From NCBI GenBank assembly GCA_965262725.1, contig OZ253555.1:2976001-3040000 (forward strand): DNA of 64,000 nt, read 5' to 3'. Below are positions 1 through 4,651 of the stretch, piece after piece. Within the stretch, counting starts at the first letter, position 1, and every line of letters starts with the position of its first letter. The notes under the pieces were generated by a model. That model saw only the letters and a program-made list of their open reading frames with translations. It was not told where the DNA came from and did no database searches. The position numbers and the translations under genes are program-made. Origin of the DNA: Dehalococcoidia bacterium. Its GTDB lineage: Bacteria > Chloroflexota > Dehalococcoidia > UBA2979.

Positions 1-497
1 CGCCGTGATTTCACGGATGCGGTCCCGCGCCCGCTGCATCGCTCGCCGTGAGGGCCAGCGTGCGAGGAACTGGATATTCTTGTTGCGCTTCGCACGTACC
101 CAGCGATGCTCGAAGCCGAGGAACTCCAGCCCCTCGCCTCCCTCCCGCAGGTGCACGATGCGCGTCTTCTCCGCCTTGAGCTCCAGTCCGAGCTCACCCA
201 GCAGGTCACGCAGCAGGGCCAACGCCCGCTCCGCTTCCTCCCGGCTCCGGCAGAGCACCACGAGGTCATCCGCATAGCGCACCAGCACGCCATCACCCTT
301 CGCCTCCCAGTCCCGGTCCAACCGGTGCAGGTAGACATTGGCCAGCAGCGGGGACATCACCCCGCCCTGCGGCGTACCCGTCGCGCTGTGCTGCACGACC
401 CCCGACTCCATCACACCGGCACGCAGCATCGCCCGTACCAGCTTCAGGAGATTGCGGTCGCATATCCGTTCCTCGACGGCCGTCATCAGACGGTCGT
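1..497 (-). CDS. ltrA: Group II intron reverse transcriptase/maturase, 3' part (runs off window; absent from ORF track)
   Basis: Manual translation: (H)DRLMTAVEERICDRNLLKLVRAMLRAG..GTPQGGVMSPLLANVYLH..LVRYADDLVVLC..EKTRIV..EFLGF. YADD at 276-265; frame open to base 1. Confidence 0.92.
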
Positions 498-1359
498 GTA
501 GGGTCAGGGGCTGGCGCGGTGCGAGCCGTAGGCGGTGGCGCATCAGTTCCAAGCCGGTTTCCCGGTGGTGCCCAACTCCACGGCCATAGCAGCGTCCGTC
601 TCCAGCCCCTGCCACATCGAACCGGACGTGAGGTTCTCCCTCATCCGGCTCACCGATGCCCTTCACCAGATGGCATGCAGCGCTCCCCACAACGTGGGTC
701 GTGCCTTGGCCAGCCGGTACAGCATGTGCGGAGAGCCTCGAACCCTACCAAGTGGTTGCTAGCCCCGAGGGGCACTCACCAGTCCACACCCCCAGCAACA
801 TGCACGGACAAAGTAGGGGTCCTTCCCATCACCGGCGGTTATGTTGTCCGTCCGGCTCCAGCGGTACTACGACCCCCTCCGCCACCCTTCCGGCTGGCTG
901 TCCACTTCCCGGCTCTGACCGGTTATAGGACGCCTCGCTCCGACGCCCTCTCACAGGGTGCCGGGCCGGGGAGGGCTTCTCCGGTTCCCGTCGCTACCTT
1001 CCGTACGTTCCACGTCCCATACGCCGGGAGGTTTCTTGAGGCTGCATTCCAGGATCTTCACCTCGTCCATGGCCTTCGCCCTGACCACCCGGGCTCGGCT
1101 CCTCCTTGGTCCTGTCAATAGACAGGCGAGTCTCACGGCGCGGCAGACTTCGCGTCATGCTGCGGACCGCACGTTTGCTCCCCCTCATAGGGCTCTTGAC
1201 GTCGGGCTTCGACGCAGACCGTTTCCCGTCCACGCCGCCGACCTGCTAACGGGCCTCCTGACAGTTACCCGTGCCGGACTCTCACCGGCTGGCAGCAACG
1301 AGCATGTCTCCGGACCGGTCACGTCATCACGTCACCACCCCTTCGACTTCCGGACGCAC
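498..1359 (-). mobile_element. Inner ORF-less group II intron (862 nt) nested in the RT gene
   Basis: 5' GUGCG at 1359. Domain V GAGCCGGAUGAGGGAGAACCUCACGUCCGGUUC at 651-619 with AGC triad. Domain VI stem CAGGGGCUGG/CCAGCCCCUG with adjacent A; 3' end ..CCUAC at 498. Removal joins C|AC to give His in FESIPHDRL. Confidence 0.92.
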
Positions 1360-1924
1360 GCGGTATCGACTCGAAACACGAGGCGATGTCCGTCTCCACT
1401 ACCCACCGCCTGCCCCGCCACGCCTCGTCAATGAGGACCTGCAGGGCGTCATGGGCCGAACGCTTCGGGCGGAAGCCGAAGCTGCATGGCAGGAAGTCGG
1501 CCTCGAAGACCGGCTCCGTCACGAGCTTCAGCGACGCCTGCACGATGCGGTCGCGGACCGAAGGAATCGAGAGCGGGCGCTCTTCCGACCGACCGGGCTT
1601 GGGTATCCAGACCCGGCGGCTCGGCTGCACCCGGTATCTTCCCTCCTTCAGTTCCGTGGCCAGTTCATCCAGCAGGCGCTCCACGCCGTAGCGCTCGACC
1701 TCGGCGAGCGTGACGCCGTCGATACCGGCTGCGCCGCGATTGCGACGCACCTGCTCCCACGCGCGCTCCAGAATGTCTCTGCGATAAACCTTGTCGTAGA
1801 GCGCATGAAAGCGTCTATTGGGGTCGGCCTTGGCCGCCCGGTAAAGCGTGCGTTGTAGTGTTCGGACCTTGTCTTGGATGGAGTTAGCCGCTTGGGCACT
1901 CACCGATTCATCCCTACTCCCCAC
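1360..1924 (-). CDS. ltrA: Group II intron reverse transcriptase/maturase, 5' part (start GTG 1924 or 1903)
   Basis: LYRAAKA, AAGIDG, WIPKPG..RPLSIPSVRDRIVQ, SFGFRPKRSAHDA, WVVETDIASCFESIP; homology breaks exactly at GTGCG (1359). Confidence 0.92.
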
Positions 1925-2521
1925 GCGTGAGCAAAGCAGGGGTCCTTCCCATCACCGGCGGTTGTGTTGTCCGTCCGGCTCAAGCGGTACTACGACCCCC
2001 TCCGTCACCCTTCCGGCTAGCTGCCCACTTCCCGGCTTTGACCGGTTATAGGGCACCTCGCTCCGACACCATCTCGCAGGGTGCCGGGCCGGGGAGGGCT
2101 TCTCCCGTTCCCGTCGCTACCTTCCAAACGTTCCACGCCCCTTACGCCGGGAGGTTCCTTGAGGCTGCAGCGCAACGCGCATTCAGGATCTTCACCTCGT
2201 CCATGGCCTTCGCCCTGAATTGCCGGGCTCGGCTCCTCCACTATCCGTTAACGACGCGGCAGGCTTCGCTTGATGCTGCGGACCGCCTGGTTGCTCCCCC
2301 TGATAGGGCTCTTGACGTCGGGCTTCGACGTGGACCGTTTCCCGTCCGCGCCGCCGACCTGCTAACGGGCCTCCTGACAGTTACCCGTGCCGGACTCGCA
2401 CCGGCTGGCAACGACGAGCATGTCTCCAGACCGGTTACGTCATCACGTCACCCGCCCTTCGACTTCGGGACACACCAACCTCACCGGATATCTCAATCGC
2501 ATTTCCAATTCAGGACACTAG

Positions 2522-3802
2522 CAGGGTGCTGAAGAAGCTCCTTCCGGGGGCCTCGGAGCGGTGCCGGGCGGCTTGAGAGGCCACGTCCGGCTTCGTGATC
2601 GCCGTCTCCTGACCTGCCCCCGGCGGCCTCGGAGGGCTCCTGGACCGGCCGTAGGGCGCAGTGCGCCCTACGCCGTGGCAGCCTCGAGCCTGGCCATGCG
2701 CACCAGGTTGTAGGCGGCGGCGGTGAGCTCCAGCCAGCAGCGGTTGCGCTCGCGGCCCACGAAGCGCAGCTTGCGCCCGCCGCCCACGGTCTTCATCCAG
2801 CCGAAGACCTGCTCCACGATCGTGCGTCGCTTCTGACTCTGCCTGTAGCCGCGATGCCGCGTGGTGCGCCCGTCCACGGCGCTGCGGCGGCGGCGATCGT
2901 GCTGCGCCACGCCGCGCCCGCGCAGTTCCGCCACGAAGTCGCGCGTGTCGTAGCCGCGGTCGGCGCCCAGCGTCCCGCAGCCGCTCACGCTGCGCTCCAG
3001 CATCGTGACCGCCGCCTCGCGCTCGGCGTACCCGTTCGCCTCGGTCAGCTCCAGGTCCAGCACCAGACCATGACGGTTCTCGGTGAGCAGGTGGCCCATG
3101 TAGCTCAGTCTCGCCGTCTGCCCCGACCCTTTCGTGTACAGCCGCGCCTGCGGGTCCGTGCCGGAACTATGCGTATCGCGGCGGCGGCGCCGCCCCCGGA
3201 AGTCGACCTCCGGGTTGCGCCCGCCCGGGGGTGTCCTGCTCGTCGCGCGGGCGGTAGCTCTTGAGCGAGGCCCAGGCCTCCAGCAGCGTCCCGTCCACGG
3301 TGAAGTGGTCGGCGGAGAGCAGCCGACGCCGCCTGGCCTCGGCCACCACCTCGGCGAAGAAGGCGCGCGCGACATCGGCAGCGAGCAGGCGCTCGCGATT
3401 CTTCGAGAAGCTGGAGGCGTCGAACGGCTCGTCTGAGATGTTGAGGTCGAGGAACCACTTGAACAGCAGGTCGTAGCGCAGCCGCTCGCAGAACTGGCGC
3501 TCGCTGCGGATCGAGTAGAGCGCGATCAGCAGGCTCGCCTTGAGCAGGTGCTCGGGCGGGATCGAGGGCCGGCCGCTCTTGCTGTACATCGTGCCGAACA
3601 GCGGTGAGAGCCGCTGCAGCGCGGAATCGACGATCGGTTTGATGCGGCGGATCGGGTGGTCGTCCGGGATGAAGGCGTCCGGCGTCACCGCCAGCAACAT
3701 GTTGGTCTGACGCTCAGCGTCGCCTCGCATGGGGCGCCTCCAGGCTACGCCCCCGCCGCCTTCGCTATCCTGCCAGACGGCTGACCCTTTTTCAGCACCC
3801 TG
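2522..3802 (-). mobile_element. IS5-family insertion sequence (1281 bp) with CTAG target duplication
   Basis: Terminal inverted repeats CAGGGTGCTGAA (from 2522) and TTCAGCACCCTG (to 3802). CTAG at 2518-2521 and 3803-3806; DDE transposase inside. Confidence 0.9.
2668..3730 (-). pseudogene. IS5-family transposase, frameshifted near 3230
   Basis: N-half (GRPSIPPE, SERQFCERL, VDGTLLEAWAS) and C-half (TDPQARL, GADRGYD, VEQVFGWMK, AAYNLVRM) lie in different frames, joined at a C-run. Confidence 0.8.
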
Positions 3803-4651
3803 CTAGCGGTCGACCGCGGCGGCAATCGCGCGGTTGGTGAAGACCCGCGTCATCGACCGCCGGTACGCCTCCGAGCCAGCCAGATCCGCATTGATGTCCC
3901 CCAGAGCGTCGGCCGCCTCGGAGGCGGCCGCTATCGTGTCGGCGTCTAGCACCGAGCCGGCCAGCGCCTGCTCGACCGCCCCGAGCCGCTGCGCGTGCGT
4001 CGAGGCGCCCGTCACCGCTACGCGGGCACGTGTGCAGACGCCGTTCTCGACGGTCAGCGAGGCAGCCACTCCGACGATCGCGAAGTGTGAGGCGGGGTGG
4101 CGGAGCTTCGCATACGCCGCCTGCGTCGGGGCGTCGAAGCTCACCGACGTGATCAGTTCGTCCTCCCCGAGATCGACTTCGAAGAGCCCGCTGAAGAAGT
4201 CCCCGGCGCCGACCGCGCGCTCGCCGGCAGCACCGACGATGTGGATCGTCGCGCCAAGCGCGACGGCGATGGCCGGCAGATCGGCCGCCGGGTCGGCGTG
4301 CGCCAGGCTGCCGCCGATCGTGCCGCGGTTGCGCACCTGCTGGTCTCCGATCTCGCTTGCCGCCTCGGCGACGACGGGAGCGGACGCAAGGAGCACCGGG
4401 TCGGACTCCAACTCGGCATGCGTGGTGAGGGCGCCGATCGAGATGCGCCCTCCGTCCTCGCTGACCCCGGAGAGCCCGGGGATTCGACTGATGTCGATCA
4501 GTGAAGTCGGCTCGGCGAGGCGCAGCTTCATCAGCGGGATCAGGCTGTGCCCCCCCGTGATGAAGCGAGCGTCGCCCCGGGCCTGCTGCTTGAGTGCGAT
4601 CGCCTCCTCGACGGAGCCGGCGCGGTGGTACTCGAACGCTGAGGGGATCAT
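3803..4651 (-). CDS. coxM: Xanthine dehydrogenase/CoxM-like FAD-binding subunit
   Basis: [43 protein letters not shown]; ATGA overlap with the large subunit. Confidence 0.85.
   Translation of the reverse strand: MIPSAFEYHRAGSVEEAIALKQQARGDARFITGGHSLIPLMKLRLAEPTSLIDISRIPGLSGVSEDGGRISIGALTTHAELESDPVLLASAPVVAEAASEIGDQQVRNRGTIGGSLAHADPAADLPAIAVALGATIHIVGAAGERAVGAGDFFSGLFEVDLGEDELITSVSFDAPTQAAYAKLRHPASHFAIVGVAASLTVENGVCTRARVAVTGASTHAQRLGAVEQALAGSVLDADTIAAASEAADALGDINADLAGSEAYRRSMTRVFTNRAIAAAVDR

Follow-up and report, generated by a model that had tools for sequence, protein, structure and literature searches.

Group II introns that lack an open reading frame (ORF), change their exon-binding sites (EBSs) and home into related introns are already known, and for subgroup IIB the mechanism is textbook. 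The TeI3/TeI4 introns of Thermosynechococcus elongatus form a burst of close relatives, most of them ORF-less derivatives mobilised in trans; the families differ in their EBSs, and members have inserted into insertion sequences (ISs) and into other introns, producing twintrons with identical inner copies (PMC2882425). In Methanosarcina acetivorans, ORF-less introns and introns encoding a reverse transcriptase (RT) have homed repeatedly into related introns, including their ORFs, and form nests (PMC4424553, PMC2882425). RmInt1, RmInt2 and Sr.md.I1, introns of Sinorhizobium that belong to subgroup IIB3 and have a class D intron-encoded protein (IEP), use an endonuclease-less RT and home in ISs (PMC4075523, PMC4615759), and sequential splicing of a Trichodesmium twintron, one bacterial group II intron nested in another, is reported to have been shown experimentally (PMC4649490). 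Here we describe a 64,000-nt stretch of the genome of a Dehalococcoidia bacterium (contig OZ253555.1, positions 2,976,001 to 3,040,000; hereafter the window) in which two related IIB-type group II introns very probably form a twintron, with an inner, ORF-less intron that is guided by its EBSs sitting in the RT gene of the outer intron.

The locus resembles each of these systems in part. As in T. elongatus, it belongs to a burst of close relatives, mostly ORF-less derivatives that were presumably mobilised in trans; the families differ in their EBSs, insertion has occurred in ISs and in other introns, and the inner copies are identical. As in M. acetivorans, both kinds of intron have homed repeatedly into related introns and their ORFs, with nests that reach three levels here, as against up to five there (PMC4424553). 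With the Sinorhizobium introns it shares an RT in which no endonuclease domain was detected, and residence in an IS. The twintron resembles that of Trichodesmium in its nesting, but is known from sequence alone. What is less ordinary here is the complete capture of the presumed helper RT genes.

The nested introns and the interrupted RT gene occupy the following positions in the window.

498 to 1359, minus strand: inner ORF-less group II intron, 862 nt, from GUGCG (1359) to CCUAC (498)
1 to 2475, minus strand: outer group II intron (family A), which encodes the RT, as far as it lies in the window; it starts with GUGUG at 2475
1361 to 1921, minus strand: RT gene, N-terminal 187 codons, matching positions 2-137 of TIGR04416, a model of group II RT/maturases
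1 to 497, minus strand: RT gene, start of the C-terminal half, matching TIGR04416 positions 139-352 and the maturase domain
619 to 652, minus strand: inner domain V, from a sub-threshold match to Rfam RF00029 and from plastid D5 models at 619-651

The outer intron ends at genome position 2975540, which is 460 nt to the left of window position 1. Without the inner intron it is 2074 nt long, with the termini GUGUG...CCUAC; the composite measures 2936 nt and contains the inner intron as nt 1117-1978 on the same strand, so that one complete intron lies within another. Both introns have the conserved group II termini GUGYG...AC/AY, and both are recognised by the Rfam model of group II domains 1-4 (RF02003; gathering score 49), the inner at 1155-1291 with 102.8 bits and the outer at 2271-2407 with 93.7 bits. 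Matches of the plastid D5 models to the hairpin at 619-651 fall below the cut-offs of those models. A search of the 862-nt inner intron for an RT ORF found none. The two introns are 86% identical over the first 551 nt (domains I-III) and 92% identical over the last 181 nt, and an ORF remnant of just the first three codons was recognised by eye in their pairwise alignment, indicating that the inner intron is an ORF-deletion derivative of the outer lineage. The inner intron splits the RT frame between ..FESIP and HDRLM.., and its excision leaves one open frame. On the two RT halves Pfam reported RVT_1 and GIIM only, with no endonuclease domain detected, and the protein ends ~40 residues past GIIM. 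By contrast, the T. elongatus RTs have an endonuclease domain, and the inner intron there lies between the first two ATGs of the RT gene, so that RT could be made from unspliced RNA (PMC2882425), whereas here the insertion is in mid-gene, between conserved RT blocks (TIGR04416 137/139), and breaks the frame.

The exon-binding elements and the intron-binding sites (IBSs) that they contact are as follows.

1082 to 1090, minus strand: inner EBS1 loop, GGGUGGUCA; EBS1 GUGGU at 1088-1084, with its core at 1088-1085; delta is G1089
1127 to 1133, minus strand: inner EBS2 GACUCG (1132-1127) with the A on its 5' side (1133)
1142 to 1144, minus strand: 5' strand of the inner coordination loop, GCC; delta' is C1142
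1019, minus strand: inner EBS3 (U), in the 3' strand A-U-G of the coordination loop
1360 to 1374, minus strand: inner target in the RT gene, with IBS1 at 1364-1360, a 3-nt spacer, IBS2 at 1373-1368 and T at -15 (1374)
497, minus strand: A, the inner IBS3, which opens the 3' exon and is position 2 of the His codon, where ..SIP is followed by HDRL..
2216 to 2224, minus strand: outer EBS1 loop, GGCAAUUCA; EBS1 at 2222-2218; delta is G2223
2242 to 2247, minus strand: outer EBS2, CGGAUA, fully complementary to the exon sequence UAUCCG (2490-2485)
2258 to 2260, minus strand: 5' strand of the outer coordination loop, GCC; delta' is C2258
2142, minus strand: outer EBS3 (A), the homologue of inner U1019 in the pairwise alignment
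2476 to 2490, minus strand: outer target, with IBS1 GGUUG at 2480-2476 and IBS2 UAUCCG at 2490-2485

The inner EBS1 is presented in a loop GG-GUGGU-CA on a GCCC/GGGC hairpin and pairs with the exon sequence ACCGC (1364-1360) through four Watson-Crick pairs and one G-U pair, and the inner EBS2, GACUCG (1132-1127), is fully complementary to the exon sequence CGAGUC (1373-1368). In the outer intron, the EBS1 sequence CAAUU (2222-2218) forms three Watson-Crick and two G-U pairs with exon GGUUG (2480-2476). EBS2 and IBS2 form 6/6 Watson-Crick pairs in the inner intron, in the outer-A intron and in the intron of a second outer family, B. A first-pass annotation, made by a model from the letters of the window, had proposed these pairings for both introns; its coordinates and base pairs were all exact on the minus strand, and the T that it had predicted as the first base of the outer 3' exon was found in 12/12 copies. 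The outer target is in a repeated IS, 45 nt in from the end, and is antisense to the 3' end of an ORF of that IS.

Directly upstream of the 45-nt IS end that bears the outer target is a further IS (window 2518-3803, minus strand) with 16-nt perfect terminal inverted repeats (CTAGCAGGGTGCTGAA...). Its transposase ORFs (3730-3167 and 3375-2668) overlap, suggesting a frameshift, and the protein appeared IS5-like by eye.

We surveyed the genome (3.67 Mb, one contig, 70.6% G+C) for copies of the inner intron, counted by their 5' junctions, and found 28, with 100% identity wherever their sequence is present; 24 of them are intact, insertions interrupt 3, and 1 is without its last 5 nt. RT genes of outer family A hold 12 of the copies, and family B RT genes hold 3 at the same codon; 1 stands directly behind another copy in a tandem pair, and 12 occupy other, unrelated sites. 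One of the latter is a different position in an RT gene of family C, a third family (1524130). Family B is ~80% identical to family A in domain I and 85-89% identical in the N-terminal half of the RT. The intron boundaries are exact in all 28 copies, and target duplications are absent. The 12 copies outside family A/B RT genes are all on the strand with positive GC skew: the orientation of these copies flips between 0.41 and 0.54 Mb and again between 2.54 and 2.56 Mb, and the cumulative skew is lowest at 0.40 Mb and highest at 2.55 Mb.

The 12 sites outside family A/B RT genes were unused in deriving the EBSs and form an independent test set, which we compared with 200,000 random genome positions. 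Pairing with EBS1 was complete (5/5) at 8 of the 12 sites, compared with 3.6% of random positions, and was 4/5 at the other 4 (16.2% of random positions). With EBS2 in a fixed register of -14 to -9, at least 5 of 6 bases paired at 7/12 sites (2.8% at random), and EBS1 together with the best EBS2 register gave at least 9 of 11 pairs at 11/12 sites (4.7% at random); the combined pairing ranged from 8 to 11 of 11. The base at +1 was A at 7 of these sites, compared with a genomic A frequency of 14.6% (P = 6e-4). The other copies of the inner intron, which the first-pass annotation had named as able to contradict its assignment, thus occupy sites that do fit EBS1 and EBS2, and the 12 sites amount to a natural specificity profile: CGAG at -14 to -11, C(C/U)GC at -4 to -1, T at -15 and A at +1.

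Three of the inner copies are cut by IS insertions (294033/291404, 1391732/1392941 and 408952), and in two of these the intron sequence overlaps by 4-5 nt at the breakpoints, as expected of target duplications. One locus is a three-level nest (G000:C1:732582-737446), in which a family B intron carries the inner intron in its RT gene and a third family's intron, 1923 nt long, in turn interrupts that inner copy in its domain V loop, after nt 722.

We then compared EBSs and exons across related introns, drawn from three genomes of the same taxonomic family, 80 loci in public genomes (mostly Actinomycetota assemblies, with RT identities of 50-79%) and the inner, A and B introns of this genome. The 5' end was defined for 49 introns, of which 47 were distinct; one copy at the junction of a tandem array was excluded from the EBS1 count. 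Domain VI is shorter in many relatives, and a hidden Markov model of the introns' own domains V-VI therefore extended to the 3' end in only some of them; 3' ends were assigned by a regular expression for domain V combined with the closest match to a 3'-end consensus, which placed 35 of the 47 introns. Positions 3-6 of the EBS1 loop paired with exon positions -1 to -4 in 176 of 184 cells, with all four bases paired in 39 of 46 introns; the permutation mean was 75.4, and none of 20,000 permutations reached 176. The fifth base (loop position 7) was U in 37/46 introns and paired in 27/46, indicating that the co-varying EBS1 core is 4 nt rather than 5 nt. For EBS3 and exon position +1 the raw counts were U:A 10, A:U 12, G:C 10, U:G 2 and G:U 1 (n = 35). 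The G:U row came from the intron L052_2351, which was dropped because its assigned 3' end belonged to the intron nested in it, the true end being located past the edge of the retrieved locus, leaving 32 Watson-Crick pairs, 2 G-U pairs and no mismatch (n = 34), compared with a permutation mean of 11.0 Watson-Crick pairs and 0 of 20,000 permutations reaching the observed value. In the EBS2 window the longest helix was 5.19 with an intron's own exon and 4.44 with permuted exons (n = 36; 0/5,000 permutations), so that the co-variation of EBS2 is real yet weaker than that of EBS1 and EBS3, with a variable register. All of these permutation figures overstate independence because the relatives share ancestry, and the stronger argument is the occurrence of three Watson-Crick pair types in one column.

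The 5' exons of many of the related introns lie 13-17 nt downstream of CTAG or CTAA (e.g. ..CTAGCCTCGATGATTC, immediately before the intron), a pattern suggesting that they share a type of target, which may be IS ends or stop codons. One public metagenome-assembled genome has three full-length related introns in a head-to-tail array with a spacing of 2089 nt (L089:335-6564).

To place the EBSs in the domain I fold, a distal ID structure was written on an alignment of 39 domain I sequences and the pairing was then counted. The distal ID helices were paired in 98.7% of cells, and both partners vary in 22 of the 39 pairs; these values were not reached in any of 500 shuffles, and sliding the 3' partners by 1-3 columns left 34-44% of cells paired. 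EBS1 is the 9-nt terminal loop of the distal ID hairpin GCC-GA-GCCC/GGGC-GAA-GGC. EBS2 lies 5' of this hairpin, in a single-stranded multibranch junction just past the helix GCGCCG/CGGCGU, and is followed by a small hairpin in most members, though not in the outer intron. An internal loop has GCC as its 5' strand and A-N-G as its 3' strand; EBS3 is the middle base of the latter, and the last base of the GCC pairs with the base just 5' of EBS1 in 39/39 sequences (G:C 26, C:G 6, U:A 6, U:G 1). We take this pair to be delta-delta' and the internal loop to be the coordination loop of subgroup IIB. The three hallmarks of class IIB are all present: EBS3 pairs with +1, delta-delta' lies in the coordination loop, and EBS2 pairs with IBS2. 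Class IIA, in which the base next to EBS1 pairs with +1 and there is no EBS3, does not fit, as the inner intron has a G facing A at these positions and has an EBS3; nor does class IIC, which has no EBS2 and inserts behind terminator-like hairpins, as EBS2 pairing is present here. A one-base EBS3-IBS3 contact is described for both IIB and IIC, whereas IIA uses delta-delta' with the exon (PMC4424553, PMC4075523). The proposal of the first-pass annotation that the loops are EBS1, EBS2 and EBS3 of IIB-type introns is thus borne out by the other copies, by the co-variation among relatives and by position in the fold.

These results also bear on whether the loop matches could be coincidental, with the copies having spread by DNA-level recombination or IS movement rather than by RNA guidance. 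A lone 6-nt complement in a domain I of ~400 nt is near chance expectation (an estimate, not a computed value), and IS elements are abundant around the copies. However, such spread does not account for exact intron ends without target duplications in all 28 copies, for an IBS pattern that 12 unrelated flanks have in common, for a strand bias of 12/12, or for family-wide co-variation with three Watson-Crick pair types both at EBS3 and at delta-delta'. Coincidence is already contradicted by the fit of the other sites, by the exon co-variation and by the fold count, and we regard it as scarcely credible.

The RT site pairs at 11/11 positions, which among the 13 distinct sites only one other (s1302815) does, and it alone combines 11/11 pairing with T at -15 and A at +1. 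Every RT gene of family A (12) and family B (3) is split by the inner intron at codon 187/188 (15/15), and a search of the genome allowing 4 mismatches in 24 nt found no uninterrupted RT site; empty target sites of the outer introns were present, 14 of 26 for outer-A and 4 for outer-B. In T. elongatus, 2/8 RT ORFs are continuous (PMC2882425), compared with 0/15 for families A and B here. One RT gene contains two inner copies head to tail (G000:C1:549500-551223), the 3' flank of the upstream copy being the 5' end of the next, an arrangement that would fit a second invasion of an occupied site whose 5' exon side was still intact. The homologous site carries no insertion in the 86 RT matches from relatives, and it pairs at 10/11 positions in the closest relatives and at fewer in distant ones. 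The EBS3 column has U in the inner intron, whereas the six nearest relatives have A (5/6) or G (1/6), so that the U looks derived; EBS3 is the only one of the three elements for which the alignment suggests a direction of change.

Retargeting is not needed if the EBSs are as described but a single chance off-target insertion into an RT gene was followed by multiplication of the composite, through homing of the outer intron or transposition of the host IS. Such spread as a unit is compatible with the near-identity of the outer-A copies, of which 7 clean ones differ at 3 of 2074 columns, with the tolerance of the inner intron for incomplete pairing, the 12 other sites having 8 to 11 of 11 pairs, and with the residence of the outer intron in a multi-copy IS. 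The RT site, however, is one of only two among the 13 that pair at 11/11, and of those two it alone also offers T at -15 together with A at +1; the same site is filled in 3/3 family B RT genes, the N-terminal half of which is 85-89% identical to that of family A; the tandem pair points to re-invasion of one RT site; none of 15 RT sites is empty, whereas 14 of 26 outer-A sites are; and the RT sites of the nearest relatives already pair at 10/11, with more distant ones lower. We therefore consider this course of events unlikely. Adaptation of the inner intron to a conserved RT coding segment, which the first-pass annotation had put forward, is supported by the full pairing and the 15/15 occupancy but is not proven.

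Nesting in an RT gene was also seen outside this genome. In a public metagenome-assembled genome (L052:2351-6513), a related full-length intron (2117 nt, start at 3897) interrupts the RT gene of a second related intron, at a different site, between GLDFLG and F, the counterpart of the FLGF segment of the RT described here. Homing into RT genes thus recurs in this intron lineage.

For the EBS-guided twintron we propose the following course. The outer intron would home to its site near an IS end. The lariat of the inner intron, bound to RT made elsewhere, would reverse-splice into matching DNA, probably single-stranded DNA at the lagging-strand template, with EBS1, EBS2 and EBS3 pairing with 5 + 6 + 1 bases of the RT coding sequence ..CGAGUC-GAU-ACCGC followed by A.. 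(FESIP, then H), and the RT supplied in trans would copy the inserted intron. By such steps the inner intron may have filled all family A and B RT genes and the 12 looser sites. Precise splicing of the inner intron would restore the RT frame, so the RT output of the 15 genes should depend on that splicing.

The strand bias of the inner copies would mean entry into the lagging-strand template if the strand with positive skew is taken as the leading strand. Outer-A copies follow the GC skew in 10/12 cases, the exceptions being those at 1453961 and 3118904. RmInt1, which is likewise endonuclease-less, has the same bias towards the lagging-strand template (PMC8914252, PMC4075523). The inner target further resembles the RmInt1 target in having IBS2 at -9 to -13, IBS3 at +1 and T at -15 (PMC4075523), and the RmInt1 relatives, like the introns here, differ from each other in EBS1, EBS2 and EBS3 and hence in their targets (PMC4615759). 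T at -15 was present at 9/12 of the sites outside family A/B RT genes (P = 5e-6); among the 13 distinct sites it was present at 10 in a fixed register and lay just 5' of the best EBS2 register at 12. RmInt1 requires this T, and 98% of its selected targets have it (PMC4075523). An interaction called EBS2a, in which the nucleotide preceding EBS2 pairs with the one preceding IBS2, is described for IIB1 and IIB2 introns (PMC8643678). As the base 5' of the inner EBS2 is A1133, T at -15 could be read by protein or by RNA, and by analogy it may be read by A1133 in an EBS2a-like pair rather than by protein. Most relatives have A immediately before EBS2; two, L023 and L070, do not fit an EBS2a pair by eye.

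In other respects the introns differ from RmInt1. EBS1 is 7 nt in RmInt1 (PMC4075523, PMC4615759) and 4-5 nt here, and the RmInt1 determinant G at +4 is not enriched here (3/13 sites). The class D motif LX3AX3PXLF[V/A]HW (PMC4615759) had no match by eye in the RT C-terminus, and the best plasmid-borne relatives of the RT are actinobacterial (56-61% identity), not from Sinorhizobium. The available portions of PMC4075523 and PMC4615759 describe no ORF-less hyperparasite of the RmInt1 RT gene. Compared with solved structures, the N-terminal half of the RT matched IIC RTs (GsI-IIC and two others) and the IIA RT LtrA about equally (E values of 1e-23 to 1e-25) and the T. elongatus RT at 5e-13, a pattern from which no IEP class can be read. 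We take the two structure entries matched beside GsI-IIC to be IIC.

With no intact RT-A or RT-B gene in the genome, RT must come from spliced twintron transcripts or from another family. Family C would be the candidate for the latter: its RT is ~38% identical to that of family A, and roughly 11 of its RT genes are uninterrupted, whereas every A and B RT gene is interrupted. Some T. elongatus intron RTs do mobilise several ORF-less introns, but the driver RTs there are 84-100% identical to each other (PMC2882425), far from the ~38% between families C and A. Moreover, the inner intron shares with family A the start of domain IV, including the first three codons, and the 3' 181 nt (92%), and the intron ends and target flanks of family C differ. 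We consider mobilisation by family C, or by any RT other than A/B, very unlikely, and continue to favour a family A/B helper.

Family C introns occur at ~13 places in the genome (e.g. 1849783-1851697), mostly with intact ORFs, and most copies follow a shared flank, ..TAAGCCC(T/G)(G/A)ATCCAGA.

Spliced RT sequence was sought in public sequencing runs. Contigs of one RNA run and one presumed-RNA run carry domain V, pieces of the inner intron (946-1208 and 718-896, 100% identical) and an empty outer-A site. In a further public run, X8, in which DNA and RNA were not told apart, two contigs of depth 20 join 497 to 1360, indicating that RT sequence without the inner intron exists in that run. These contigs could be a relative's DNA or spliced RNA; an uninterrupted RT gene of a relative may be their source because 52 of 135 contigs are only 90-95% alike.

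In addition to the weaker EBS2 co-variation and the shared ancestry behind the permutation figures, several points weigh against an EBS-guided inner intron that retargeted to the RT gene of its helper. The Rfam model of domains V-VI (RF00029) scored 37.5 bits on 498-653, under its gathering score of 40; the match spans the whole model, with a long insertion in domain VI. The EBS2 register is shifted by 1-2 nt at 4 of the 12 other sites and by more in some relatives. The leading strand is equated with the positive-skew strand by convention, not from a measurement here. No RT-A or RT-B gene is intact in the genome, so that the origin of the RT behind the 28 copies is presumed. The ligated RT junction was absent from the RNA run and the presumed-RNA run (4 and 3 contigs), which is uninformative either way. 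Finally, the 12 RT-A twintrons could have spread as units, since the outer-A copies are almost identical.

Under the favoured reading, the locus is a clean natural experiment on target change: the inner, A and B introns differ mainly in EBS1, EBS2 and EBS3, and each fits its own site. For annotation, it means that the 15 'broken' RT genes are better read as twintrons than as pseudogenes. Beyond this we propose, tentatively and as a rather doubtful extension, a hyperparasite loop in which the ORF-less intron has captured all helper copies, so that RT would be made only if the inner intron excises itself, probably with the help of the same RT. If true, this would be a closed feedback loop, by which either the intron population as a whole would limit itself or RT supply would become switch-like. 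A non-autonomous intron here saturates the gene of its presumed helper (15/15), and whether such hyperparasitism limits intron bursts is a question that may be tested in one organism.

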